Source: Protoeuglena noctilucae (taxonomy: Eukaryota). From it: 20,000 nt of DNA. The position numbers and the translations under genes are program-made. Under the pieces are notes generated by a model. It did no database searches and was not told the DNA's origin. It saw only the letters and a list, made by a program, of their open reading frames with translations. Below, piece after piece: positions 825 to 20,000 of this stretch; position 1 is the stretch's first letter, and each line of letters starts with the position of its first letter. Where the stretch lies: assembly GCA_958009085.1 (NCBI GenBank), contig OY253687.1, forward strand, positions 867,259 through 887,258. Direction: 5' to 3'.

Positions 825-2726
<1,902 letters not shown>

Positions 2727-3053
2727 TGCGGAGGGGTGGCGGTTGCTGGGGCGGCGCGGTTTCCGAGCGATCCGCCTCCGCTCAGCCGCGGCCTGAGTGC
2801 GCTGGGCGCGTTGCCGCCCTCTTGCTAGAAGGGTGGCGTTGAAACCGCTCAGCTGACACTGGGTCACACCCTCACTGGCGCGCCTGCCAGCACCTGCGCT
2901 AGACACCTGGCGCTAGGGACGAATCTTCTACAACACTCACCCCGCCTCGCCTGCGCCGGCCGTGCCCCCCGCTCTTGGCCGCCCAGCCTTGAACGGGCGT
3001 GGGGGCACCGGCGAGGGGCGGGCCTCGCAGCGTCGACGAGGCCAGCCACTGAC

Positions 3054-4111
3054 ATGCCCCGCCACATGTATGGCATGACGCGCCTTATCCGCCTGCCCGC
3101 GCCGCGCGCCGTGCCCTGCCCCCGGTCGTCTTCGCCACCTGCCCGTCCATCGGATGTGCCCCTGGAGGGTCGTCGGCTGCAACTGGGCGCAAGCACCGTG
3201 GCCCTGACGCTGGCTTTGCTGACATGTGATGCTGTCGCGGAGCCGTTGGGCGCTCGGCTGGGCGGTGCGGACGCGGAGACCGTGCTGAACAGCGTGCTCG
3301 GCGCGTACGGTCTTCCGGGGCTCAAGCTCGGTCCCGAGAGATTCGTGGTGTACGACGATTTCGACAATGCATTCGTTTTCGAGTATCCGAGGTGCGATGG
3401 CGCTTCCCGGCCCCTGGGTGCTGGTCCCGTCTGGATTCGCCACATCGCCCCCGTCCCCTCGACACGCGATGCGCCGGCGTTTCGCTGCAGGGGATGGGTC
3501 GGACGCCCTAACCGCGAGCGACCTGGCGTCGTCTTCAGCAACTTCCAGACGGCGGACCAGCTCTCCGTCGAGGTCTTCCCGAGCGCAAAGGGGGACCTGG
3601 TGGCCCAGGCCGTCCAGGCGCTGGTGCGGGCGGGGTGGCGTGCTGCCGACAGCAATTCGCGGGCGGGTGGGGCCTGCACCGCCCTGCCATCCCCCGCGCA
3701 CCGTGCGTCCCTCGCAGGTCGTCCCGCCGGGGCTGGCGAGCGGAGACTCGAAGCTCTCGGCCCCGAGCATCCGCAGCGTCAAGTCAGAGGTGCGGGAGGT
3801 GGACGGATTCCAGTACACCTTCATCGCCTTCACGAGCGAGACGACGACGCGGTCGGGGTACGACGTGCGTAGGAAGCACGTGGCGGTGGCGGCAGAGGTG
3901 CGCGGGCACAGCTGGCTGCGGGAAACCAGCGGTCATCGGTGCCACGCATGTGATGGGCGTGTGGTGTGGATGACCACTGGCTGAGGTCCTTTCTCGTCTG
4001 CAGAAGAGGGGCCAGGTGTACGTGCTTGGCTGCAGCGTGCGAAGCGACAAGTGGGACGCGGACAAGGCGGCCCTCGTGCAGCACGTTTTGGACTCGTTCC
4101 GCGTGCGATAG
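3054..4111 (+). CDS. PsbP-domain thylakoid lumen protein; join(3054..3391,3491..3623,3718..3897,4004..4111), ~252 aa; start ATG uncertain
   Basis: Ser/Pro/Arg-rich transit-like N-terminus, RR followed by a hydrophobic stretch and AVA (Tat-like signal), F-x-F-E-Y-P-x-x-W motif, and C-terminal HVAVAAEKRGQVYVL...W...VLDSFRV typical of the PsbP/Mog1 fold. Three phase-consistent GT-AG introns. Confidence 0.8.
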
Positions 4112-6826: not shown

Positions 6827-7707
6827 GACTAGCCAGCGATGGGGAGCGAAGCAGGGCTGAGCAGCGGGGGAGGCGTGGGCGGGCGACCTGCGCCGACTGT
6901 GTTCGGTGCGCGTGCCTTTGCAGCGCTTGCTTGCAGCCCCAGCCTCTCAGCTCCCATGAAGTATGAGTGTGTGTTCACGGGCAGCAGTGGCAGTGTGCTT
7001 GGATAGGTCACAGCGCACCCCTCAGCGTGGAGACTGCACGTGCCGGCCCACGGGTGAGGTCGGGGATTGCATGGACGGCTTGCTTGCTGCGCCGCGGCTA
7101 CCGAGCCGCAGAGGTGACGGGAGAAGGAGCTGCGCTTTAGCGACGGTGGGTGGTGAGGCGTGGTGGGCCATGGAGGGGGCGCACGAGCACCCGATGTGCC
7201 ACGACGCCCTCGCTGACGTGCAAGCCTGCCCTGCTGCACCTCACCCCATCAGGCGAGCGCGGCAGTCACACCGGCACCCTCTGCGCACAGGCCAGCATCT
7301 GCATTCCGCACAGATCCCGAGAGTCGCACACATTAACATGCCCCACTTCTACCCCGCCAAGTGCCGCTGCCGCTGCCTCTGCTCCGTGGGCGTGGCCGAG
7401 GGGCAGGCCGCGTCGCTGCCGGGCGTCCCATCGCACACACAGCCTCTCTGTCTCGCCCGTCATTGAGGGCTCAGGGTGGCTGATAAGGCAGTGCCCCTGG
7501 AGATGCCGTGCCCCGCAGCGTCGGTGCGTTGCTGGTCATGGCTGGTGTTGTGTGCCGCAGCCGGGGCCGAGGCGCTCGTCGCGCCGGCAGCGCACCGTCG
7601 CAGGCGGGCCATGGCGCTGCACGTGCCCTGATGACAACCTTCTATACCCGAGGGACCCGGCGAGGTCCGTTTACCTTCACCTGCACTGCGCCCGCCTGTC
7701 GTCATGG

Positions 7708-7839
7708 GTGAGGCGAGCGACGCGCCGGCTGGCGCGCGTATTGCCTGCGATGCCGTCCATGGCTGGCGGAGAAGGTGCTTTTGTCAAGGGGGGCTGAAGA
7801 GGGTGTTGCGGCTGAGTTCTCTTGTGCGCTGAGGTGCAA
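7708..7839 (+). repeat. Diverged direct repeat, copy A (~130 bp)
   Basis: Begins GTGAGGCGAGCGACGCGCCGGCT, identical to 8721-8743, and stays alignable through CCTGCGATGCC, ATGGCTGG and CTTGTGCGCT. Confidence 0.8.
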
Positions 7840-8720
7840 GGGCTGGGGACGCCAGGAACTTCCTGGATGCCCCGGCGCGCTGGAAAACGCAAGTGACGCA
7901 GCGCAGGAAACGAGCTGCGAGGGCGGAGAGCGCCTGTGACACAGCACGGCCTGCAGAGTTGCACAGACCTGAGTGACGGGAGTCGTTGCCTGGGGCAGAG
8001 GCGGCGACGATTGCGGTTTTGGGCATGGGCAGGGAGGATAGCGTGCGTGAGCGAGGCCACGGGGGCTGCGAGGACTTCGCTGCACGGGCGTAGGCAAACT
8101 TCTACATTGCTGAGAGCGTGCGTGAGGTGGGCGGGCCAGCAGACGAGCTCTTGGCGGCACAGGCGGGCTCAGCGGCAAGGCGGGCGGGACGTTGGACGTG
8201 TGACCTGTCCGCGGCCGCACGGAGCCCAGACGAGCAGCTTACGCGCTCCTTGATTCGGAAGACGCTCATGATGGCTTTGCACGCGCTGTTCGCTGGCTCG
8301 GTGCGCTGTGGTGCGTCTCGCGGCCCGTGCTGGAGGGAAAGGGATTTACGGCCTCTTTTTTGAAGCTATGGCACGCAGCGATGGAGGTCTGAGCGGAAGG
8401 TGTCACGGAGTAGCTGGAAGCGGGGTTGTCTGGGTTCTGGTGTCGGTGAGGTGCTCACGCTTGCCACCCCTGCCAGCGACCGGCGACGCGTGGTCGCGTG
8501 GGGCCAACGCACTCACTTCCAGAGGCCAGTATCCGGGCGCTTATGGTCCTCTGTGCGTCGCGGCATGTGCACATGCACGGGAGCTGCGGGCTGGGCCGCA
8601 GGCCTGGCGCTGTGCAGTGGGTGCCGGCAGCATGTTTGGGTGGTGGTCGAGGTGTGTCAAAGGACCGTTGAGAGGAGTAATTCCCAATGTCTGCGCCCGC
8701 GGGGGACACCGGGGTTGCAG

Positions 8721-8851
8721 GTGAGGCGAGCGACGCGCCGGCTCATGCGTGCATTTCCTGCGATGCCTGCTATGGCTGGAGGGATGGGCGCCCTTTGTCT
8801 GAGGGGGTTGGCGAGAGTTGGTGCGGCAAAGCCTTGTGCGCTTTGGGGCAA
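8721..8851 (+). repeat. Diverged direct repeat, copy B (~130 bp)
   Basis: Alignable by eye to 7708-7839. Confidence 0.8.
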
Positions 8852-9468: not shown

Positions 9469-12400
9469 ATGGCCTTAAGTTTAGACGGAGGGCCCGGTGA
9501 CAGGCGAGCGGCGCGGTGCCTGCATCGGTCCTCTGTCATCCTCTCGTGCTGCCGTGCTCCCCGGCGAATCCTCCGCGGCGCGCGGAGAGCGGGAGCGGGC
9601 CCACCAACATTCCCCCGCCTACCCACAGCATGCTGAACCCGGGCCAGCGCACTCGTTTGATTTACCGCAATCGGAACGACGACGACCTCAAGAACCAGGC
9701 GGAGCTGGGCAGAGGGATCCTCTTGACCCCCAACGTGCAGATGTCGTTCGCGGCCGACTCGATCAAGAACATGTGGCTGAACGAACGCGGGGAGACGCCG
9801 GCCCTGGTGTACGTCGCCATGGCGGATCTCCAGAACCTCCCTATCGAAGTCCCGACGCACTCAACTGACGGAGAGAAGCTTCGTCTCGTCAAGATCGGCT
9901 TGGGGTCGTTCTACCGGGACGGTGCGCTTCCGTCGCGCGTGGCGGACATGAAGGCCGCTTACCTGCAGATCCTCGGGTGTAGTCGGTGAGTGGCGCGGTG
10001 GTGGCGTTCGCGCGGCTAGCGCGGATGAATGTTTTACGATGAGTGTGACGGTGCCATGCCGCATGCCGACGGTAGCTATCGGTTTGTTTTTTTTGTTGGG
10101 CTTTGGCTTGGGTTGACGTCCGGGTAACGTGAGCACATTAGCGTGCCTGTTGGGGTTTCGACTCCATCATGAGTCGATGCGTTAGGCCTGTGTGTGCCAG
10201 ACGTATGGGTTGGGCCCACGCCTGCGAGAAACAGCAACCCACGCCCGTCCATCCATGCGCATGCTCCCATCCCCCCTTCCCACAGGACGGAGGTCCCCAT
10301 GAACCGGAGGAAGGGCGTGACCATGGAGAAGGTCTTGCAGTGCGCGACGGTGCACCTGTGGCACCCCGACCTCTCCAACCTGCTCATCTCGGGCTACTCG
10401 GAGTGCCGAATCATGACTGAGGCCCAGGCAAGTGGGGAAGCGCTCTATCCGCGCGGGGGGCTGTGGGATGAACCTTGACCGGGACCGCTGCTCGATGTAC
10501 ATGACGCAGTTCAAGGCTACGGCGGAGGCGTTGGACAGCCTGGCGAAGGAGTGGCGCCATGCCACGGACGCCGAGCTGGTGCGTCGGGCGTGGGCAGCTG
10601 GAGGGAGCATCAGCCCTTTGTACGCTAACAACGACGCGTTCAAGGGCCTCCCGCCCGAGGCCTGGTTCGAGGGGCGATCCCAGGATCAAGACCGCGCAAG
10701 AGGAGGCTTTTAAGGTGACGTTGAGGGCGGCGGCGACGAGGGGGAGCGGGTCGGGCGACCCGCTTTGGCGGCATCGGCCGCGCCGCACAACATCATTGCT
10801 TACTGCTCGCACGTGGTCCGCAGCGGTGTGTCATGGAGTCCCCCACCCTGCGCACGTTTGTTGAGAAAGTGGAGGGCTCCCTACCCCTCGTGGCAGAGTG
10901 GACGCCCATCAGGTGCGACGCGCCCGTGGGCTACGCCACCATCCCTTCCAAGGGCGGGGCGCGGGCGCAGGCGCTGGCGGGGGGGCGGTGGACCGTGCAG
11001 CAGCGCGGCGACGGCACGGTTGCCGTCTGCCCCGTGCACTCTGCTTCTCAGGACGGGGCCGAGGGGCAGGCACAGCCGTCGGAGGCCGCTGGGGCCGAGG
11101 GGCAGGCGCCGCCGTCGGGGGCCGCTGGGGCCGCCGGGCGCCGCGTGCGACAGCTGGGTGAGGCAGCGTGCCGTGCTTGTCCGCGGCCCGTTTCCGGCTG
11201 CACACGCTTGTCGAGGGCCGGACCCGTCCCCTCCGCAGATGGGTGGTGGGACGAGGAGGGGTTCAGGCGGCTGGCCAGGATTCACATCTTTGGCGGTTAT
11301 CAGCCGGAGCGCGCATCCCCTTACGGCAAGAACATCACTTTCCAGGACACGTTGGTGAGTGCGCTGGCCGCGGTCGGGCCTGTCCTCAAATTCGCCGGCC
11401 GGCATGACAACGGGCTCCCTTACGGCTCGCAGGAGACGACGGAGGGACAGCGGTTCCTAGCGGCCTTTCTCAACGGTCGGGGGCGCGCCGCCGCAGCGAC
11501 GGCGAGCCGCAAGCCGGGCTTTCGCGTGGCCTGGGCGCAGTGCCTGGCTGAGCATGGCAGGGAGGGGCCGGCCACGGACGCCGAGCGGGCCCGCATCGAG
11601 GCCGCCGTCAAGAAGGTGGAGGCGCGTGGCGACTACACGTCGGGGCCGGCGGCGGAGGAGGACAGCCTGGAGCTGGTGGAGCTTTTCCGGGAGGTGAAGC
11701 GGGCGCTGGACGCGGACGGCCAGCTCACGGGGTGGACGGCCGACCAGATGCAGCTTTGCTGGGAGGCGGGCCAGGTCGCCAGGCGCCGCGTGGCGGCGGG
11801 CATGACCCGCCTGTCACAGGGCGAACTCAAGGCCGTGGAGGACGTGCTGGAGGCAGAGCCCGACATCCACCTGGACCTCCCGGCGGTCAAGGCGAGCGCG
11901 CGGTGGGGACGGACGACCGGGGCACCTCTTGATGCATGACGCCATGACGTGACGTGATGGCTGGCCCGCAGGAGGCTGCGGTGGCGAGGCTGCGTGAAAA
12001 ACGGAGCCACGTGGGCCGCCTGGGCGAAGCAAGCCACATGTCCATGTGGGCGCTCGTGCAAGGCATCCGCGGGGGGCGCCGTGGGACGTCCGGACAGAAG
12101 CTGATGTGGACGGAGGAGGACAAGGACCTGCTCGCGTGCTTGCGGTGGGAGCTGGAGGAGCAGGTGCGGCGCGCATGCCCCGCCAGTCTTGGGCTATTAG
12201 GCTCGCTTCACGTTTGCTCCCCTTGCCCCAAGGGGCTAGGGCCACCCACAATATGGGCATAGCACGCTGACATTCGCAGCGCATCGGGGGGGACGGCGAC
12301 GCCACGGGCGACGATCATAGCATGACGGCGCTTTTTGGCTACTTCCCCGGTCGGTCGGAGGACGCGATCCGGTCGAAGGCGCTCGAGATGACGCTGCATG

Positions 12401-13828
12401 ACGCGTGGGAGCGCCTGCGTGGCGATGGCGGCGATTGGGCCGACGAGAAGACCAAGGTCCTCATGGAGGCCATCCGGGGCATCCTGGACACCATCCCCCT
12501 CGTGCGGGGGACGATGCGGGACAAGGAGGTGCTCCGACAACTGGCTTTTCGGCGGGACCTGCAGGACCACTGGCGTAGCAAGCGCGTCTTGATGGTGAGG
12601 GACACTACCTTTCGATAGTTGCCGTGTGTGTCGCGCCGGGCGCATGTGACATGTGGGTTCTCCATGACGCCCTCGCTCTGCCTGCAGTTCGCGTTGTGGG
12701 GGTGCGACGTGTGCCTGGACTTGCCCCCAGCTGCCGGCATCTCGGCCATTACGTACTATGAGCGGCAGGACCGGCGCGGGACGCCGGCGCGATACCAGTG
12801 GCCCCCGGAGCTTGATGCCATGTTGGGCGAGGAGATCAAGGCCCGCATTCGAGGGGCCCTGAACTTGGGTGACAACGCCCCCTTCCCTTGCCCCGAGGAC
12901 GTCAAGGCCGAGCTGACCAAGAAGATGGGGAAGCAGGCACGGGAATGGCGGGCCGCGTCCCGCGAGCCAATTGCGGTGCGTGTGCGAGTCTGTGCGGCAA
13001 TGCGTTTTGCATGACGTCACCCAAATCTGTTGTGGAAAAGGGGGTTTCCATTACATGTCTGGATGCCACTCGTCCTTGATTTGTGCATGTAGGTGGCCAT
13101 GCAAGGCCGAATCCAGCAGCTCGGGCCGGTGCAAGACTGGCCACTCGATGACCTCAAGAGGCTCGTCATGGACAACTTCAGCAAGTACGCTGGCGCCGGG
13201 CAGCAGGGCGGGGGGGGGCAGAGGTGGTCGGCGGAAGCGAAGAAGATCGTCCGCGAGGTCGTCGAGCGCCACAAAGGAGCTTCGACGTCCGTTCCAAAGT
13301 TGGTGGTGAGTGGCGATAACGGGGGTTCGAGCGCGCAGATGCGCACGCGCCCGTATCCACTGGCATCCACCCATACACCCTGTGAGCCCTTCCTGCTCCC
13401 AGGCCAAGGTGCAAGAGGAGCTGCAGAAGAAGGGGTGTGAGGGGCGCAAGGATGGTGGCGTCGACTACATGGTGCGCGAAATCCTGAAAACGGCGGAGGG
13501 CGGCTCGGAGGGCGCGCGGCAGGCCAAGAGGCCGACTCAGGGCCGTTTGGCGGACGGGCGGCCGGCCAAGAAGGCGGGCCGGGGCGGCCGTGGGCGCGGC
13601 CGGCCGGCGAAGAAGGCGGCCCTAGGCGGCGCCAGGACGGGGGGCGTCGCGGAGGTGGGGGGTTCCGGTGGCGGGGGCGTGGGCGGGTGCGGGGGCGGGG
13701 ATAGCGATAGCGACGTGCAGCTTGTGGGGCTGTCAGCTCTCGGCGGCTCGGGGGGCGGCGCGGGAGTGGGGGGTCCCGGCGGTAGGGGCGCGGGTAGCGA
13801 CAACGACAGCGACGTCCAGCTGGTGTAA
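9469..13828 (+). CDS. Multi-exon orphan protein, ~990 aa: T5orf172/GIY-YIG-like motif + Myb/SANT-like repeats + AT-hook + SIM-like tail. Exons approx 9469..9503(?),9629..9985,10286..10427,10510..10589,10684..10714,10824..11157,11239..11354,11433..11891,11972..12163,12280..12594,12688..12975,13093..13305,13403..13828
   Basis: GC3-rich exon blocks linked by phase-consistent donors/acceptors. WTEEDKDLL...FGYFPGRSEDAIRSKA is Myb-like; RGRGRPAKK is an AT-hook. The 5' end (9405, 9469 or 9630) and the 10590-10683 junction are uncertain. Confidence 0.65.
11055..11133 (+). repeat. 36-bp in-frame tandem duplication (GAEGQAQPSEAA / GAEGQAPPSGAA)
   Basis: Units start GGGGCCGAGGGGCAGGC at 11055 and 11091; partial third unit at 11127. 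Confidence 0.85.
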
Positions 13829-13882
13829 GGGGGAGGCGCGAGGGTAGGTGGGGGGAGGGTGAAGGAGGGTGGGGGTGCTTTG

Positions 13883-16800
13883 AAAAGAAAAAAAAGCCCG
13901 CGGCGGGATCGGAGCCCGACACGTCAGCACCTAGTGCCGGGCACAGGGGGGCGAACCCCCACACTGGCCCCTTGGGAACCACACTCCCAGAGTGCGTGGG
14001 GGCTTTGCAGCGCGTCCCGGGGGCGGCAGCGTCGTTAGGCCACCTGAACGCGTGCGGTGAAGGCAGCGGCAACCCGGGACTTGGGGGACCGGATCTCGGG
14101 GACCTGGGTCCCCCGCTCTGTCCCACGAGGGGGGCGCCGCAGCCTTTGCAACACTCCGAACATGACGTGAAACCCTCGGCTACTGCTCCCGACTCTACTA
14201 GGCTCCCGCCCGCCGGCGCCCGCCTGAGGTTTCCTTGCGGGCACCCCGGAACAAGCACTGACGGGCAATAACCACTGTCCCTAGAGACCGAACCCGGACT
14301 TTGGGCCCTGGAGGACCGGCGACCTTGAACTCCTGCACGTCCAAGAAGCACCGAAAGAACATGTGCAGACTCACCACGTCCCGCGCACGCGCGAGCAGGC
14401 TACCCACACCATCACAGGAGTGCCATCTAGCAGACCCGGTGGGGCGCACCTTGCCGTGGCAGCCAAGCACGTCCCCCGCCAGCAGAAGGTGTACAGCTGC
14501 GCCAGGACAGAGCAAAGCATGCATATGGCGCCATGGAATACGCTGGCGAGCCCCCACCTGTTGCGGCCTCACCTAGGTCTTACCTGCAGCTGCTGGCACT
14601 GCCCCTGGGACACCCTCCCACGCGGACCTGCAATGCGGACCTTCCCGGCCGCTCACGCGGCAGCCGGGAAGCCCCGCCACGAGAACCTGCGGCCATTGGC
14701 GTGGGCGAGGACGAGCCTGTCACCCCGCTTCCCCAGCAGAGCAGCGAGGCGCCCTGCCCCAGTGACAGCAAGAGTGTCTTGGACCTCGGCTGCCACGATG
14801 GCGCCAAGCTGGGCATAGAGGCCTGCGGGCGTCGACGGGGAGCGCCAGGTCTCCCGAAGCTCTTGGCGGCACCTCCAGATGAGCTTGAAAGCCGCGCCCA
14901 CGATGACCGCCCACGAGTACTGCGTGAAACGGCTGGGGGAAGGGGGGACCAGGTGGAACACCGCCCGCGCCGAGAGGGCCGGGGCCCGCGCGGCCGCCTT
15001 GACCGTCTCCCACACCTCCTGGGCCCTGTCACAGGCCCAGAAGGCGTGGGCGACCGTGTCGTCGTGGGAGCACTGCTCGCCATCCCTGCGGAGGAGGGGG
15101 CACGTGGTGAGGTCGAGCCAGTAGCAGTGCGATGCGGTGGCACGCGCGTCGGCCAGCGTCAGCCACAGCGCCTCGTGCATCTGCGGAGACAGGGGGAGAG
15201 CGTTGATGGTCTTGAGAGCGGCATGCATGCCCGCCGCCGTGACCCCGCCCGGCCCGTCCTGGGCCTCCCCGAGCGCCCCGGCCCGGGACCACTCCTCCAC
15301 CTTGCGGGCGAGCCGCGAGGTGATGGAGGCCCGGTCGAAGGCCGCCCCCACCGCATGTCGAACCGTGTACTGCTGGAGCGGAAGGGGGACGGGCACTTCG
15401 TTGGGGCGCCGATGAGGCTCGAGGACCCACTGCGTGGAGGGGGTGACACGGGGCAGGTTGAGCTCCGCCCACCACGCGGGCTCGGGGGCCAGGCGGGGGG
15501 CGGAGTGCACAGCGACCGGCGCAGCCTGGGGGCGGGAAGGACGGGGGAGGAGTTGAGAGTCCTGCTGCGCGCAGTAAGCCGCCAGCGTGTGCTCCGCCCT
15601 CGCCAGGTCTGCGGGGGAGGGGACCTGGCCTGCGGCAAGGGAGCGGAGGTGAGCAGGGAGGGAGCCGCAGGCCGCAGGGGACAGAACCAGGCCCTGCCAA
15701 GGGTCCCATGCAACCAGGATGGCCACGAGCTGCTCAGCCACGCCCTCAAGCACCACACGGCTGGCATTGGCACGGGGAGGCACAGGCGCGCCCACAACGC
15801 CCAGCCCCTCAAGCGCCTTGCAAACCTGGATTATTACCCTTTTGACGGGGTCCTTGGCCGACGTCGTGTCGCCCAAGCGAAAGTGCAGCAGCCGCTCCCA
15901 GCGCGTGCCCCACAGCCGCCCGCACCACGACGCCTCCAGCACCTCCGAGGCCACGGCGCCCGGGGAGTCCCAGGCTATCTTGAGCCCTGCGGCCGCGGCT
16001 CGCACACGAAGGAGGTGACCCACACACCCCAGGCGAACTTTGGCCATCTTCCGAGCCTGCGGCGGGAACGAGCCATCAGCGAGAGGCAGCCCAGTGGCAG
16101 CGTCGACCAGCAAGTCCGAGGAGCCTGCGTCGGTAAGGAGGGAGAATGGGATCTCCAGGGAAGGCAACTGGGCAGCAGGCTGGGGCTCAGGGACAGGGGA
16201 GCGAGCCGGGGCGAGGGCCACAAGGGAGCCGAGCGCGGCAGGGGCCGCCAAAAGCGCCCCAAGGTAGGAGGGACCAGGGACACGAGCAGCCAAGGCAGCA
16301 CCCGCAGAGCTGGGCAACCTGGAGTCCCGAGAGAGCCATGCCACGCCGGGGCCGCCCAGGACCGTCAGGGCCCGGTCCAGCATATGGCGAGCCGGGCCAA
16401 AGCCCGGCGCGCCCGTGAGAATCTTTGCCAAAGTGCGCATGCGGCGCGCTGGGACATGCACGGTGGGCCGGGTCGCCCCCAGCCCACCCTCAGCGCGCGG
16501 GCCAAAGACCATGCAGTCAGCCGTGCGACGCCACAGGGAGCCAGCCGCGCGGTTGCCCTGCACCAGGGTGTTGACAAGCTTCTCCGCCTCTTGGTCCATA
16601 GAGGCGGGGGCGGGGGACGTCTCGAGTAGATAACTCGCCGTGCTTGCCACATAGGCACTGGCCGCCCCCGCCCTCCCCTGGATGGACAGATGCAACCCTG
16701 CGATGGCGGAACCACGCTGGATCATCACGCCCTGCGTGCGTGTCCAGACCTGGTGCAGGGCATCGCGGGTGTGGACACCCAGGTAGCGCACGCCCACGCC

Positions 16801-17682
16801 CAACCCCGTGGGCATGGACCAGCGGCAGCCCCGTGCCACCGCTGCTGCCTCCAATGAGGCGTGATCGCCCCTGCCAAGCCGGTAGACTGCCGTCTTGGCT
16901 GCATTGACCTCGAGGCCAGAGGCCGCGGCAAAGTCCTCCAGGGTCGCCGACAGCGCTTCCCATGCTGCGGGCAGGTCTGCGGTCAGGGCAGCTGCGTCAT
17001 CCGCGAAGAAGCGCGATGCCAGATCCTGCGGGGGAAGGCTGCCGAACGGCCCCGGGGGAAGAGAAACACCGAGCGCCCGCGGCTCGGATGCGGCGAGGGA
17101 CCGAAGGCGACAAGCCAGCGGCTCAATGGCAACGACGAACAGGAGGGGACTTAAGGGGCATCCTTGTTTCACCCCACGCTCTATAGAAAAGGGCCGGGAG
17201 CAGCCGCTCTCGAAGGCAAGTACAGCCTTCGACTCCACCTGGAGGGCCATCGCCGCCCCCACGAAGGGGGCGGGCAGGCCCGCATGGGTGAGGACGGCTT
17301 GGAGGTACTCATGGTCCAATGAATCGAAGGCCTTCTTGATGTCGAGGAACACTGCGTGGGCGGGACGGTTCTCGAGGGTCAGGGTCTCGTCAAGGAGCTG
17401 CAGCGTGGCGATATTAGCAATGATATCGCGGCCCGGGACGGAGGCCGCCTGGTCCCCGTGGACCAGGCGCTCCATGACGCTGGCATCGTCCCCCTCCTTG
17501 CGGAGGAGGCGATTGCCAAAGACCTTGGCCTCCGCCCTGCGGAGGGAGGTGAGGAGGGCGATGGGTCGGTAGTTGGTCCAGTCAGCTCTGGACCCCCCCT
17601 TATGCAGCAGCCGGATGGCTGCGTCCGAGAACCCAGCGGGAACAGGGTGGCCCTCGAGAAGACGGTTGGAAACATCAGCCAC
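13883..17682 (-). mobile_element. 5'-truncated L1/Tx1-clade non-LTR retrotransposon (RT ORF + ~760 bp 3' region + oligo-T/C tail)
   Basis: Contains the RT ORF below. The left boundary is inferred from an A-tract plus 43-nt motif repeated at 18830-18913. No ORF1, APE domain or TSD is visible. Confidence 0.8.
14653..17682 (-). CDS. Non-LTR retrotransposon ORF2, reverse transcriptase plus C-terminal zf-RVT; N-terminally truncated, 1009 open codons
   Basis: NYRPIALL, LDIKKAFDSLDH, GVKQGCPLSPLLF, FFADD, SGLEVNAAKT, YLGV, EGGLG and C-terminal C..C...DTVAHAFWAC...W...LIWRCR, all L1/Tx1-type motifs. Confidence 0.95.
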   Translation of the reverse strand: MADVSNRLLEGHPVPAGFSDAAIRLLHKGGSRADWTNYRPIALLTSLRRAEAKVFGNRLLRKEGDDASVMERLVHGDQAASVPGRDIIANIATLQLLDETLTLENRPAHAVFLDIKKAFDSLDHEYLQAVLTHAGLPAPFVGAAMALQVESKAVLAFESGCSRPFSIERGVKQGCPLSPLLFVVAIEPLACRLRSLAASEPRALGVSLPPGPFGSLPPQDLASRFFADDAAALTADLPAAWEALSATLEDFAAASGLEVNAAKTAVYRLGRGDHASLEAAAVARGCRWSMPTGLGVGVRYLGVHTRDALHQVWTRTQGVMIQRGSAIAGLHLSIQGRAGAASAYVASTASYLLETSPAPASMDQEAEKLVNTLVQGNRAAGSLWRRTADCMVFGPRAEGGLGATRPTVHVPARRMRTLAKILTGAPGFGPARHMLDRALTVLGGPGVAWLSRDSRLPSSAGAALAARVPGPSYLGALLAAPAALGSLVALAPARSPVPEPQPAAQLPSLEIPFSLLTDAGSSDLLVDAATGLPLADGSFPPQARKMAKVRLGCVGHLLRVRAAAAGLKIAWDSPGAVASEVLEASWCGRLWGTRWERLLHFRLGDTTSAKDPVKRVIIQVCKALEGLGVVGAPVPPRANASRVVLEGVAEQLVAILVAWDPWQGLVLSPAACGSLPAHLRSLAAGQVPSPADLARAEHTLAAYCAQQDSQLLPRPSRPQAAPVAVHSAPRLAPEPAWWAELNLPRVTPSTQWVLEPHRRPNEVPVPLPLQQYTVRHAVGAAFDRASITSRLARKVEEWSRAGALGEAQDGPGGVTAAGMHAALKTINALPLSPQMHEALWLTLADARATASHCYWLDLTTCPLLRRDGEQCSHDDTVAHAFWACDRAQEVWETVKAAARAPALSARAVFHLVPPSPSRFTQYSWAVIVGAAFKLIWRCRQELRETWRSPSTPAGLYAQLGAIVAAEVQDTLAVTGAGRLAALLGKRGDRLVLAHANGRRFSWRGFPAAA

Positions 17683-18458
17683 GACAAGCGCCGCCTCATC
17701 CGCGACATCACCCCACCGCCTGCCCCGCGCCCGACCAGGTGCAGACTCCGCCCACCGGGCCCCCAGATGCGCGATTGGCTGGCCGATACGACGAAAAAAG
17801 AGCCGTGCCCTTTTTGCGGCGATGCGAGCTATCGAATCAACTCAGAAAACGTGTGACGCGATGGAAGGACGCCAGACCGGATGTAGGGGCGATGTCAGCG
17901 TTCCACCCCACGGGCGCCACGTCTCTCGCCACTGTCTGAGCCCATCAACCCGTTGCTGCCAGCTCTGCCCCGACGTTTGTCCCCCGTCGCACCCTTTGCC
18001 AGCCCCCCCAAACGGGGCTGGTCTCTCACGTTGGCTGGAGCGTGATGATGAGCGATTCAACAGTCGAGGGGTGCTATGACTCTCAGAGCCACGCCTTGCG
18101 GCAGAAGTGCCGTCCCCCGGGGCAGCTGACACCCCGGGGTTTCCATCGTTGCAGTGCATATGGCACGTGGCCCGCCCCCGCTAGGTCGCCCCACCCTAAG
18201 GCAAAGGGGTCGCCCACCCCGGGTTCTTGCACCCCTAGCCCCCTCGCTGCGCCCGAAGGCAGAATTGCCGTCCCAGAGTGGGACGATGCAGCCGCGGGGG
18301 CTGGAGCACAGGCGACGCGCTGGCGACCCCCACGCGGACCCACCCGACCAGCGCCAGAGCCCCTGAAGGACCACGGGCGGGGAGGCCACGCGGCACGCGC
18401 AGCACCGTGGGTGTTGCCGCAGTATTAATTACGTCGGACCTTCGCAATGTGTATGTGA

Positions 18459-18532
18459 GGACTTGTGGCGCAGTTGGTGAGCGCATCGTGCTGATAACAC
18501 GGAGGTCGGAGGTTCAAGTCCTCCCAAGTCCA
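18459..18532 (+). tRNA. trnI-GAU: tRNA-Ile(GAT)
   Basis: Cloverleaf: acceptor GGACTTG/CAAGTCC, D-stem GCGC/GCGC, anticodon stem TCGTG/CACGG with loop CT-GAT-AA (18493-18495), T-arm GGAGG-TTCAAGT-CCTCC, discriminator A. TTTT just downstream; AT-rich TATTAATTA about 35 nt upstream. Confidence 0.93.
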
Positions 18533-18583
18533 CGTTTTGCTAGGTTCGATGGCAAAAAGGGCATGGAGGAAAAGGAGGAGAAG

Positions 18584-18664
18584 TGCGCTTGCCGGGACTC
18601 GAACCCGGACCTGCCGCGAACTCAGTCCTGGGAGGCGGCAATGATACCCTTTCACCACAAGCGC
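18584..18664 (-). tRNA. trnG-CCC: tRNA-Gly(CCC) with 10-nt intron (18619-18628)
   Basis: Acceptor GCGCTTG/CAAGCGC, anticodon stem GCCGC/GCGGC, loop CT-CCC-A[GGACTGAGTT]C, T-arm CCGGG-TTCGAGT-CCCGG. T4 and T5 runs downstream on the minus strand; TTAATATTA upstream. Confidence 0.92.
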
Positions 18665-18744
18665 GGAGGGGCTCATTCTGTCCTACAATGGGGAACAAAT
18701 GTAATATTAACGCGAACACCGCAACTCTGGCAGGAGCGCAGGGC

Positions 18745-18819
18745 GGCGCCATCGTGGCAGCCGAGGTCCAGGATACTCTGGCTGTCACTGAGGCAGGGCG
18801 CCTTGCTGCTCTGCTGGGG
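18745..18819 (+). mobile_element. 75-bp inverted fragment of the retrotransposon ORF2 3' coding end
   Basis: 70/75 identical to the reverse complement of 14731-14805 (GAIVAAEVQDTLAVT.AGRLAALLG). Confidence 0.92.
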
Positions 18820-18829
18820 CCGCTACCTG

Positions 18830-19691
18830 AAAAAAAAAAAAAGAAAAAAAAAGAAAAAAAAAAAAGAAAAGCCCGCGGCGGGATCGGAGCTCGACACGTC
18901 AGCACCTGGTGCCAGACGCGGGTGCCTCTCACTTCTCTGGACTGACTGACTTTCCTTCAACAAGGCTCACAGCTAAGGTCGCTGACCTATCTCTTGCCAC
19001 TCTTGCCCGGGGCCCTCGAGCAGTGGCTTCAGCTGCTTTGGCAGCGCCAGGGCCAGCAGCTACCAACACCAGGGAAGGTCGCATCAGCGGTGTAGCATAC
19101 ATCACCACCGCCTAGCCAAAAACAGGGCGAGGCCCTGGACCCGGCGAGCCGGTCAAGGGAGGGGTCCCTTGGAGAGTTACTTAGCAGGGCGAGGGGCCCT
19201 GGAGAGGGAAAGCCCCCTGAGGGACTGTAAGCACACCCCCCCAGGGGAGGGGAGGAGTGGAGGGGTCATGCAACGTCAGATACAGACGGGAGGGGGAGCA
19301 GGCGCCGCGTGGGATGCGGGACGAGGTGGATGTAGCGCCATAGCTACTGCTGCAGCACGGTAAGGACCACAGCAACCGGGGGGGTGCTGGGTGGACCCCC
19401 CACTCTGAGGGGGCCGACAAGTGGGGGCGGCCTACAAGTGCGGACAAGACGCAGCGGCGATTGGCCGGCGGCGGTGGGGGGGGAGAGGTGGGCAGCCGTG
19501 GCAGCCTACCCACCACAGGGGCACCGAGAACGCGCCAGGAGGCAGAGAAGACCACCTCTCTCTGCGCCTCGGGGCTGGCAGCCCCCTCAAGGTGGGGCGC
19601 GAGAGTGCAAGCCGATGGGGAAGGGGAGGGCGCACCCCACCCCCGGTGCTGGCTCGCGATCCATGCCGAACCACTTCCTCGCCTTCGTGAC
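18830..19691 (-). mobile_element. Probable 3' portion of a second related non-LTR element, capped by the telomere
   Basis: 41-nt G-interrupted A-tract (18830-18870) plus 43-nt motif 41/43 identical to 13896-13938. The remainder is not alignable by eye to copy 1, so its assignment is inferred. Confidence 0.5.
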
Positions 19692-20000
19692 GGGTTAGGG
19701 TTAGGTAGGGTTAGGGTAGGTTATGGGGGAGAGGTCAGTCAGGGGTAGGGTTAGGGTTAGGTTTTTTTGGCTTAGTTTTTTTTTGGCTTAGGGTTAGGGT
19801 TAGGTTAGGGTTAGGGTTAGGGTAGGGTTGGGTTAGGGTTAGGGTAGGGTTAGGGTTAGGGTTAGGGTTAGGGTTAGGGTTAGGGTTAGGGTTAGGGTTA
19901 GGGTTAGGGTTAGGGTTAGGGTTAGGGTTAGGGTTAGGGTTAGGGTTAGGGTTAGGGTTAGGGTTAGGGTTAGGGTTAGGGTTAGGGTTAGGGTTAGGGT
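19692..20000 (+). repeat. Telomere (TTAGGG)n, degenerate proximally and perfect from ~19850
   Basis: Direct reading; G-rich strand runs 5'->3' to the end of the window. Confidence 0.99.

Follow-up and report, generated by a model that had tools for sequence, protein, structure and literature searches.

The two retroelement features found in the window (the whole 20,000-nt stretch of DNA analysed here) are 5'-truncated copies of one multi-copy, L1-like APE non-LTR retrotransposon family. What sets this LINE family apart is the end of its copies: a run of T, or of G in a sister branch, takes the place of the usual poly(A). The telomere aspect, which gave the finding its striking look, is not supported by the window. 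Where does such a tract come from? Is it copied from the element RNA, supplied by the target or added on the way? And does the proximity of a chromosome end have anything to do with it?

Table 1. Positions of the LINE pieces, their terminal tracts and neighbouring features in the window
Feature	Position	Strand	Remark
LINE copy 1, 5'-truncated, 3.8 kb	13896..17706	-	3' UTR 13896-14652; ORF part 14653-17706
3'-terminal motif of copy 1	13896..13938	-	From repeat comparison; contig loose end before 13934
T-rich tract, 13 nt	13883..13895	- (sense)	A4-G-A8 on the + strand; directly after the 3' end of copy 1
Candidate 12-nt TSD, left copy, GAAAAAAAAGCC	13887..13898	+	
Candidate TSD, right copy, GAAAAAAGAGCC	17793..17804	+	1 mismatch to left copy
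86 nt; would count as extra 5' nucleotides with a genuine TSD	17707..17792	-	Between 5' truncation point and candidate TSD
tRNA genes, single-copy	18459-18664		Between LINE copy 1 and copy 2
RT ORF C-terminus fragment, 84 nt	18736..18819	+	Inverted repeat, 89% complementary to 14731-14814
T-rich tract, 41 nt	18830..18870	- (sense)	Three G in the + strand A tract; after copy 2
LINE copy 2	18871..18942	-	Last 72 nt of canonical 3' end; extreme 5' truncation
(TTAGGG)n telomere repeats	19691..20000	+	First ~130 nt degenerate; window end

The larger feature, copy 1 (Table 1), includes most of a minus-strand open frame of 1062 codons (14653-17841) that contains an RVT_1 domain (residues 88-355, E 5.2e-22), which confirms the RT ORF of the original prediction. 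In tblastn, residues 298-1314 of the family protein P0018 align to 17706-14656 with 96.9% identity and residues 506-1279 of P0024 to 17706-15385 with 95%; copy 1 begins at about ORF residue 506, without the ~505 codons ahead of it, which include the APE domain. Does the family have this domain at all? The original prediction left this to a full-length consensus, and P0024, which belongs to the same 90%-identity cluster, carries an APE endonuclease N-terminal of the RT (Exo_endo_phos, residues 1-238, E 2.9e-8, with 34.2 bits where the cut-off is 24.5). In the PDB, the best solved relative is human L1 ORF2p (E 3.9e-18), followed by R2 (1.7e-11), and 27,253 representative proteins match the RT at E<=1e-3. 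The Pfam domain zf-RVT was not detected in the window ORF but is present in the relatives P0035 and P0036, and a comparison with Rfam at the gathering score gave neither a hammerhead nor any other ribozyme. In the DNA-type runs X5, X2 and X7, summed contig depth (which is not a copy number) is ~9-20x that of the single-copy flanks over the 3' part of the element and ~3x over the 5' part. Four family proteins are located on one 397,918-nt contig, and P0190 contains a head-to-tail junction, in which a 3' end abuts a 5'-truncated copy.

Copy 1 is flanked by a candidate 12-nt TSD, where the original prediction saw none. The homology of its two copies is confined to the 12 nt, with none beyond, and the right copy is separated from the LINE 5' end by non-LINE sequence that matches neither the LINE nor the rest of the window. 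Runs of at least six A on the + strand occur five times in the window (one at 13888, three within 18830-18865 and one at 17794), and the one in the right TSD copy is the only run away from the LINE 3' junctions. On the other side, the single-copy contigs of the left flank end at 13912 in X2 as well as in X5; taking k as 31, the repeated sequence then starts at ~13883. Relative to the canonical 3' end, copy 1 also has an internal deletion of ~89 nt that adjoins 13934 and lies between two repeats of GGCAC, visible as a 30-residue gap in the alignment with P0185.

The 3' end of copy 1 recurs in copy 2 in the same orientation. The direct repeat 13883-13947/18858-18922 is 88% identical and its 43-nt core differs from 18871-18913 at two positions; a common 20-mer occurs twice in the window, against a chance expectation of 0.03, and none of 200 shuffles gave two matches. 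The motif, joined to the 3' UTR in independent copies, is where the RT element truly ends on its 3' side. In P0185 the 3' UTR runs into an end of the site-2 type, then into a T-rich stretch (FYFF) and an unrelated flank. The limits of copy 2 are supported by the contigs, with a loose end behind 18942 and joints 18930->14227 and 18942->13934, and residues 278-297 of P0185 align to 18941-18882. The consensus sequences of the two loose ends, before 13934 and behind 18942, overlap, and their translation by eye gives the same peptide as P0185.

What follows the motif is T-rich in all four junctions of this type: site 1 (copy 1), site 2 (copy 2), a contig joint in run X5 and P0185. The tracts at sites 1 and 2 have the lengths that the original prediction gave them, with one and three interruptions; contigs end at 18823, 18824-18875 is skipped as repeat and no contig shown spans the longer tract. 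The X5 joint connects 18067, through five additional A, to 13883, and shares with site 1 an identical A4-G-A8-G pattern behind a different left flank; it rests on a single contig with a depth of 40, compared with ~180 for single-copy sequence. P0185 retains its T-rich stretch although the final 11 nt of the motif are missing from it, and the four tracts differ in length: about 12 nt, 13 nt, at least 18 nt and 41 nt. A sister subfamily, which differs from that of the window in the last ~30 nt, has oligo(G) in three of three junctions, followed by three different flanks (P0186, P0190 and P0189, the last sharing its flank with P0188 and counted once). P0185 and the three G-type junctions were read from protein sequences alone, so their nucleotides are degenerate. 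Four further proteins (P0181, P0183, P0184 and P0191) leave the G-type sequence ~15 nt earlier for a common continuation with no visible homopolymer; no junction can be placed in them, and they stand outside the count of seven. Poly(A) is found at none of the seven junctions of the family (four T-rich, three G-rich). The last 72-113 nt fold no better than shuffled sequences (z -0.85 to +1.36), with no sign of a recognition stem-loop.

How would a LINE with such an end be copied? The explanation we prefer, to which we give an even chance, is an L1-like APE LINE with an encoded homopolymer tail other than poly(A) in its retrotransposed unit, and with reverse transcription starting in this tail. 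Since full-length members encode both the APE endonuclease and the RT, the family would spread in the ordinary way, by target-primed reverse transcription that the endonuclease initiates. The homopolymer would be part of the retrotransposed unit, an encoded and slippage-prone 3' tail copied from RNA; the A-rich (or C-rich) 3' end of a nicked or broken target would anneal to it, and reverse transcription would begin inside the tail. The priming strand would probably be the A-rich nicked strand, the mirror image of poly(A) and T-rich priming in L1. From the sequences we infer that the tract is probably templated by the element RNA and that priming may occur by annealing. The tract type follows the subfamily, which is more in line with inheritance than with a choice of target by enzymes that are nearly identical, and one interruption pattern with different flanks at site 1 and the X5 joint is what would be expected if the tract is inherited. 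The candidate TSD includes the A8 run; if it is real, that part of the tract derives from the target, which would favour a target origin of the tract or else require that a complementary target anneals.

A target origin is the main competitor, unlikely in our judgement and still to be taken seriously. A tailless RNA would end at about ...GCGGGC, the endonuclease would nick an A-rich strand at the 3' edge of an A tract, and the T's would lie within the TSD. Besides the A8 run in the candidate TSD, the scarcity of long A runs speaks for it, as four of the five in the window are at LINE junctions and the fifth is at 17794, and the GGC that ends the motif is a possible pairing partner for the GCC at the end of the primer strand. 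However, the three oligo(G) junctions of the sister would require nick specificity to have changed between closely related elements, natural targets with a 41-nt A tract are not to be expected in DNA of 61-72% G+C, the shared interruption pattern comes with different flanks, and no TSD is visible at site 2, where nothing longer than 3-4 nt was found. Alternatively, the tract could be untemplated, either because the RNA is 3'-uridylated or G-tailed and then copied, or because the RT extends the primer with A's or C's before it takes up the RNA. The variation in tract length and in the end point (P0185) recalls trimming plus tailing, and human L1 mRNA, another LINE RNA with 3' U's, is uridylated by TUT4/7 according to the passages of PMC6191937 drawn on here; a U-rich end in the present family is predicted from DNA. 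We find this improbable: the strict tie of T and G tracts to their subfamilies would not be expected, A4-G-A8-G in two copies argues for a template, and in human cells, by the same passages (PMC6191937), uridylation restricts rather than supports retrotransposition, whereas the present family would normally use a U-rich end as substrate.

For site 2 alone, could the long A tract be, wholly or partly, the poly(A) of the + strand fragment, inserted into a short T tract that followed an older 3' end on the minus strand? The fragment (residues 1262-1289 of P0018, 92.9% identity) ends 10 nt ahead of the tract, which is 2-3x longer than the other three T tracts, and nicking of the L1 type at T tracts would yield exactly this order. 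But the fragment breaks off within the ORF, 26 codons short of the stop and ~850 nt short of the family 3' end, poly(A) is absent from the seven family junctions, and the same tract type is found at three junctions without any + strand fragment, so we give this reading little credence.

Is the family dedicated to telomeres, being added to chromosome ends or breaks with no need for an endonuclease, like HeT-A/TART, GilM/GilT and Athena? Both T-tailed 3' ends noted in the original prediction do point away from the telomere, but the polarity is not uniform, as the third LINE piece is inverted: two of the three have their 3' end toward the centromere and one the opposite. The second copy was thought to run straight into TTAGGG; its 72 nt of LINE are in fact followed by 748 nt with no similarity to the LINE (18943-19690). 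Nor is there a terminal array in the window, where single-copy tRNA genes and another repeat family, together with these 748 nt, part the pieces from one another and from TTAGGG. A ~35-60x repeat lies 1.3-1.8 kb from this telomere, and the same repeat adjoins three LINE copies. Addition to ends could draw on these three copies, on the head-to-tail junction of P0190 and on site 2, which lacks a TSD and sits beside an older, broken copy, in the manner of endonuclease-independent insertions. We nevertheless regard it as highly improbable, and the telomere reading is mostly unsupported. The proposed likeness to endonuclease-less, end-adding elements is not supported, P0024 having an APE domain, and the candidate TSD of copy 1, the single-copy tRNA genes and unrelated repeats distal to it, the distance of copy 2 from TTAGGG and the inverted fragment all speak against it. 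Telomere repeats flank neither the site 1 nor the site 2 junction in the window, and a TTAGGG overhang is no pairing partner for a U tail. That the copies lie near the telomere is best explained by accumulation in a subtelomere rich in repeats, not by end-addition.

Among known systems, the L1 clade (human L1 ORF2p) is alike in its N-terminal APE and RT in one long ORF, its Cys/His-rich C-terminal part, frequent 5' truncation, a TSD of ~12 nt (a candidate here) and as the top match among solved structures, the likeness to L1 being given by the ranking of PDB matches. It differs in that the seven junctions here have a T-rich or G-rich tract and no poly(A), and in zf-RVT, undetected in the window ORF. 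Zepp carries poly(A), which the seven junctions of this family do not. Described from Chlorella/Coccomyxa as nested clusters, some at chromosome termini (passages of PMC3446292), Zepp is alike, by description only, as a LINE of a microalga-like genome and in its clustering. Stringent-type LINEs such as UnaL2 and ZfL2-1/-2 share a conserved, element-specific 3' end and a non-poly(A) tail, and the difference between the present subfamilies in their last nucleotides looks as if the enzyme recognises the 3' end; in the excerpts of PMC4176376, however, these tails carry a stem-loop and short tandem repeat units, in contrast to the mononucleotide run found here and to a folding of the end that is no better than in shuffled sequences. 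The telomere retrotransposons listed in the part of PMC10088271 used here (HeT-A/TART, GilM/GilT, SART/TRAS and endonuclease-less Athena) are alike in the orientation of most window pieces toward the centromere; in the present family there is an APE domain and a candidate TSD, and neither an end-reaching array nor an insertion into telomere repeats. An Athena-type Penelope-like element was rejected, as the family has an APE domain, its RT is LINE-type with LINE proteins as best solved relatives, and its 3' end is followed by T's.

A central question in retrotransposition is how a LINE RT chooses the end of its template and its primer. There are two well-described solutions: poly(A) on a T-rich nick, as in L1, and a specific 3' stem-loop with short repeats, as in the stringent LINEs. 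A bolder version of the preferred explanation, possible but doubtful, is that an encoded oligo(U) tail (oligo(G) in the sister) replaced L1 priming by its mirror image, that the identity of the tail can switch between subfamilies and that capture can also take place at A-rich subtelomeric breaks. Repeat annotation that relies on poly(A) would mis-call both the ends and the strand of this LINE family. An oligo(T) family with an oligo(G) sister branch would be a natural experiment on whether complementarity between tail and primer alone is enough, and on how fast it can change.

The minus-strand reverse-transcriptase (RT) element is a real multi-copy LINE with an APE endonuclease, and its 3' junctions carry a homopolymer that, unusually, is not A. 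The element lies in a window of 61-72% G+C in which plus-strand (TTAGGG)n, running from 19691 to the window end, places the chromosome end on the right. A minus-strand open frame of 1062 codons (14653-17841) matches RVT_1 (E 5.2e-22), and a repeat search of the window pairs 13883-13947 with 18858-18922 as a direct repeat of 88% identity; a 20-mer common to 13896 and 18871 occurs twice against 0.03 expected by chance, and none of 200 shuffles had two. This bears out the original observation that the 3' end of the RT element recurs in the same orientation, and the plus-strand A tracts at the two sites, T on the sense strand, have the lengths it gave (13 and 41 nt). Overlooked at that stage was an inverted repeat, 18736-18819 being 89% complementary to 14731-14814. 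Rfam, run on 13000-20000, gave nothing at the 3'-terminal sequence shared by the two copies (the motif, 13896-13938 and 18871-18913), and only two tRNAs scored above gathering. A weak plus-strand match to the Twister-sister ribozyme at 13094-13176 (24.6 bits vs a gathering score of 34, E 0.066) falls in coding sequence upstream and is probably chance. The gene-bearing part of the window also holds a 36-nt tandem duplication (11055-11126, 92%) and a 63-nt direct repeat (7707-7769 and 8720-8782, 1013 nt apart, 84%).

What kind of LINE is this? At 90% identity the window ORF falls into a cluster with 20 member proteins. In the family protein P0024 (1353 aa), RVT_1 is preceded by an Exo_endo_phos domain spanning residues 1-238 (34.2 bits against a cut-off of 24.5, E 2.9e-8). 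By tblastn, residues 506-1279 of P0024 align to 17706-15385 (95%) and residues 298-1314 of a second protein, P0018, to 17706-14656 (96.9%); since both alignments start at 17706, copy 1 lacks the first ~505 codons, endonuclease included. Among solved structures the best match is human L1 ORF2p (E 3.9e-18 to 1.7e-15), with R2 proteins ranking behind (1.7e-11 and weaker). Outside the family the best relative, leaving aside short fragments at 84-96%, is 44% identical, and distant relatives, where precomputed or scanned, carry APE, RT, RNase H or zf-RVT domains. Taken together, the predicted endonuclease of P0024, the L1 ORF2p match and the relatives' domains identify an APE-type, L1-like LINE; with P0024 in the family, the earlier analogy to endonuclease-less elements is not supported. 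A metagenome scan with the 20-mer returned 21 loci, none with similarity past the 20-mer, and these are chance matches in unrelated GC-rich DNA. A 28-nt pattern had no match in the genome contig and viral contig collections, where a pattern search with P0018 yielded 109 and 5 candidates, of which tblastn confirmed none.

Is the motif part of this LINE? Loose-end consensus strings before 13934 and behind 18942, both present in three public sequencing runs (X5, X2 and X7), overlap by five bases, and their sense strand, when translated by eye, reads PAAGNDELEI and IVVPHGSRLV. Other copies were reached through the 3' UTR translated in its open sense frame (P0179), followed by a protein-collection search; members of six clusters were read (12 proteins, P0180-P0191). 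One of them, P0185 (365 aa), reads ...GFAPLCPA-PAAGNDELEIVVPHGARLVSREVSGTRVWHQVLTCRAPI-FYFF-SGGSPQ... and joins the 3' UTR of copy 1 and the site-2 sequence (18941-18882) within one copy, in which the motif, ahead of FYFF, stops 11 nt short of its end. This continuity proves the motif to be part of the LINE, as originally claimed, and excludes an independent plus-strand repeat. It also implies a canonical end made of 18871-18942, ~55 nt and the sequence from 13934 onward, so that copy 1 has a loss of ~89 nt bounded by two GGCAC repeats, and copy 2 consists of nothing but the extreme 72 nt. The idea that the A tracts are the poly(A) of plus-strand elements, with the motif as target, was dropped as a general explanation, because P0185 and the loose ends show the motif contiguous with the LINE 3' UTR and because T-rich tracts also occur at junctions with no plus-strand fragment.

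On the sense strand this type of end is followed by T-rich sequence at four of four junctions, and A4-G-A8-G, the pattern of site 1, recurs at the X5 joint (18067/13883). A sister 3'-UTR variant, homologous to ...GACGTGT.CGGGCT and divergent after it, terminates in ...HYALSLGG(G)(G), whose Gly codons, found in two reading frames, require 6 or more G; oligo-G and then a different flank follow at each of its three junctions. Poly(A) is thus found at none of the seven junctions of the family, of which P0185 and the three G-type ones are known from protein sequence alone and the X5 joint, more weakly supported, from a single low-depth contig (depth 40). Three further proteins (P0180, P0182, P0187) stop short of the end, and in P0181, P0183, P0184 and P0191 the sequence continues in a common alternative way, with no visible homopolymer and no placeable junction. 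The head-to-tail joint of P0190 is in frame, with RT ORF from ...INALPLSPQMH. One ENA contig of 397,918 nt bears four family proteins (P0015, P0021, P0190 and P0191), which suggests a LINE cluster. Among the papers listed in literature searches none describes a T-tailed LINE by title or abstract, which is thin evidence of absence.

Features of the LINE family and of the region distal to copy 1 (window positions)
Feature	Position or source	Strand	Details
T-type junction, site 1 (copy 1, 5'-truncated LINE, 13896-17706)	13883-13895	-	13 nt
T-type junction, site 2 (copy 2, LINE piece, 18871-18942)	18830-18870	-	41 nt
T-type junction	X5 contig, 18067 (inside another repeat) to 13883		five more A's, at least 18 nt
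T-type junction	P0185		FYFF requires 8 or more T among 12 nt
G-type junction	P0189		same flank in P0188, counted once
G-type junction	P0186		own flank
G-type junction	P0190		flank is internal RT ORF of another copy, same orientation (head-to-tail)
Low-copy sequence	first distal to copy 1		86 + 105 nt
Distal repeat	17898-18414		in three runs, depth ~35-60x that of single-copy DNA; matches neither Pfam nor Rfam
tRNA gene	18459-18533	+	single-copy depth
tRNA gene	18583-18664	-	single-copy depth
RT ORF C-terminus piece	18736-18819	+	inverted repeat; stops 10 nt short of the 41-nt tract

Contigs of four public runs were placed on 13400-19750. The summed contig depth of X5, which is not a copy number, is 183-196 over 13400-13823, 170 over 18488-18699, 1600-3700 over the 3' part of the LINE and ~500-560 over 17004-17427; X2 and X7 show a like pattern, and this is evidence for several to many copies, declining 3'-to-5'. 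In X2 and X5 the left-flank single-copy contig (4.9 kb) runs to 13912 and no further. With 31-mers, which we take to underlie these contigs, the first shared word lies at 13883, so the repeated sequence starts at about the point where the tract does. The RNA run X1 has contigs over the LINE, one spanning 13400-13991, which cannot show transcript ends and may include DNA carry-over. None of the contigs shown bridges the 41-nt tract.

Where does the homopolymer come from? Tract type is tied to subfamily (T in 4/4, G in 3/3) and the interruption pattern is common to site 1 and the X5 joint, both of which argue that the tract is copied from RNA. The tract would then be an encoded tail prone to slippage, and reverse transcription would start inside it. 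At copy 1 a candidate target-site duplication (TSD), GAAAAAAAAGCC (13887-13898), appears again as GAAAAAAGAGCC at 17793-17804, 86 nt past the truncation point. With up to two mismatches the pattern has three matches vs 0.39 expected, a number reached by 3 of 200 shuffles; plus-strand A runs of at least 6 number five in the whole window, at 13888, at 17794 and three within 18830-18865. Around the two TSD copies no similarity extends past the 12 nt, and the 86 nt beyond the truncation point have no match within the window. A reading of 17793-17900 as a third, decayed tract plus motif was rejected, its homology covering only the 12 nt and its scores lying within the null range. Judged by this pattern the TSD is probably real, and it would speak for endonuclease insertion at an A-rich site, here downstream of the last plus-strand ORF (end 13828). 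At site 2 no TSD beyond 3-4 nt was found; the earlier statement that none is visible holds there and is not confirmed at copy 1.

To judge by the TSD, an A run was present in the target of copy 1 too, which would favour a purely target-derived tract; this main rival is less likely in view of how tract type follows subfamily. Copying from RNA accommodates both: the A-rich nicked strand would anneal to the U-rich tail and prime reverse transcription, and in copy 1 the GGC-U8 with which the element ends would be complementary to the primer ...A8GCC. That the RNA or the primer was tailed without a template is distinctly improbable, L1 uridylation being known but restrictive (PMC6191937). For site 2 only, the 41-nt tract could be the poly(A) tail of the neighbouring plus-strand fragment, a minor rival to which we give little credence. 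Twin priming does not fit, as the tract lies between two LINE pieces instead of at the end, and a Pol III terminator (hairpin plus T run) is unsupported: internal TTTT occurs twice on the sense strand vs 3.6 expected. Folding gives no support for a recognition stem-loop at the 3' end (z -0.85 to +1.36), in contrast to the stringent-type LINEs (PMC4176376).

Is the LINE then added at chromosome ends, as a telomere-specific, endonuclease-less element? The 'telomere-facing' polarity originally proposed holds for copies 1 and 2 and not for the plus-strand fragment, and this two-of-three polarity, the head-to-tail junction of P0190 and the three LINE copies adjoining one high-copy repeat each lean slightly that way. 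Against it, the family encodes an APE endonuclease, and low-copy DNA, the repeat and single-copy tRNA genes lie distal to copy 1. Beyond the tRNA genes come the plus-strand fragment, copy 2 and 748 nt unlike the LINE before TTAGGG starts, so copy 2 does not run straight into it as had been stated. Telomere repeats touch neither junction, and a U-rich end could not pair with a TTAGGG overhang. The interpretation is not supported, and we hold end addition to be very improbable. The tRNA genes are divergently placed and lie ~1 kb short of the telomere repeats; tRNA-Ile(GAU) is one of them, and the other, 82 nt long, has an anticodon not callable by ARAGORN, possibly due to an intron. LINE fragments begin 69 nt upstream of the latter. 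Directly distal to copy 2, 18943-19123 is multi-copy (~10x single-copy depth), without LINE similarity, and has the highest RNA-library contig depth on the stretch (125). The innermost telomere repeats (19704-19830) are degenerate, with a 25-nt non-telomeric insert and with T7 at 19762 and T9 at 19776, each followed by GGCTTAG. The commonest form of the repeat at 17898-18414 lacks 18033-18298 (joint 18032 to 18299). Three LINE copies adjoin or lie inside this repeat (copy 1, the X5 joint at 18067 and the P0185 flank at 18139-18086), for which reason it may be subtelomeric. Their shared location could reflect subtelomeric accumulation of the LINE, resembling that known for Zepp in Coccomyxa (PMC3446292).
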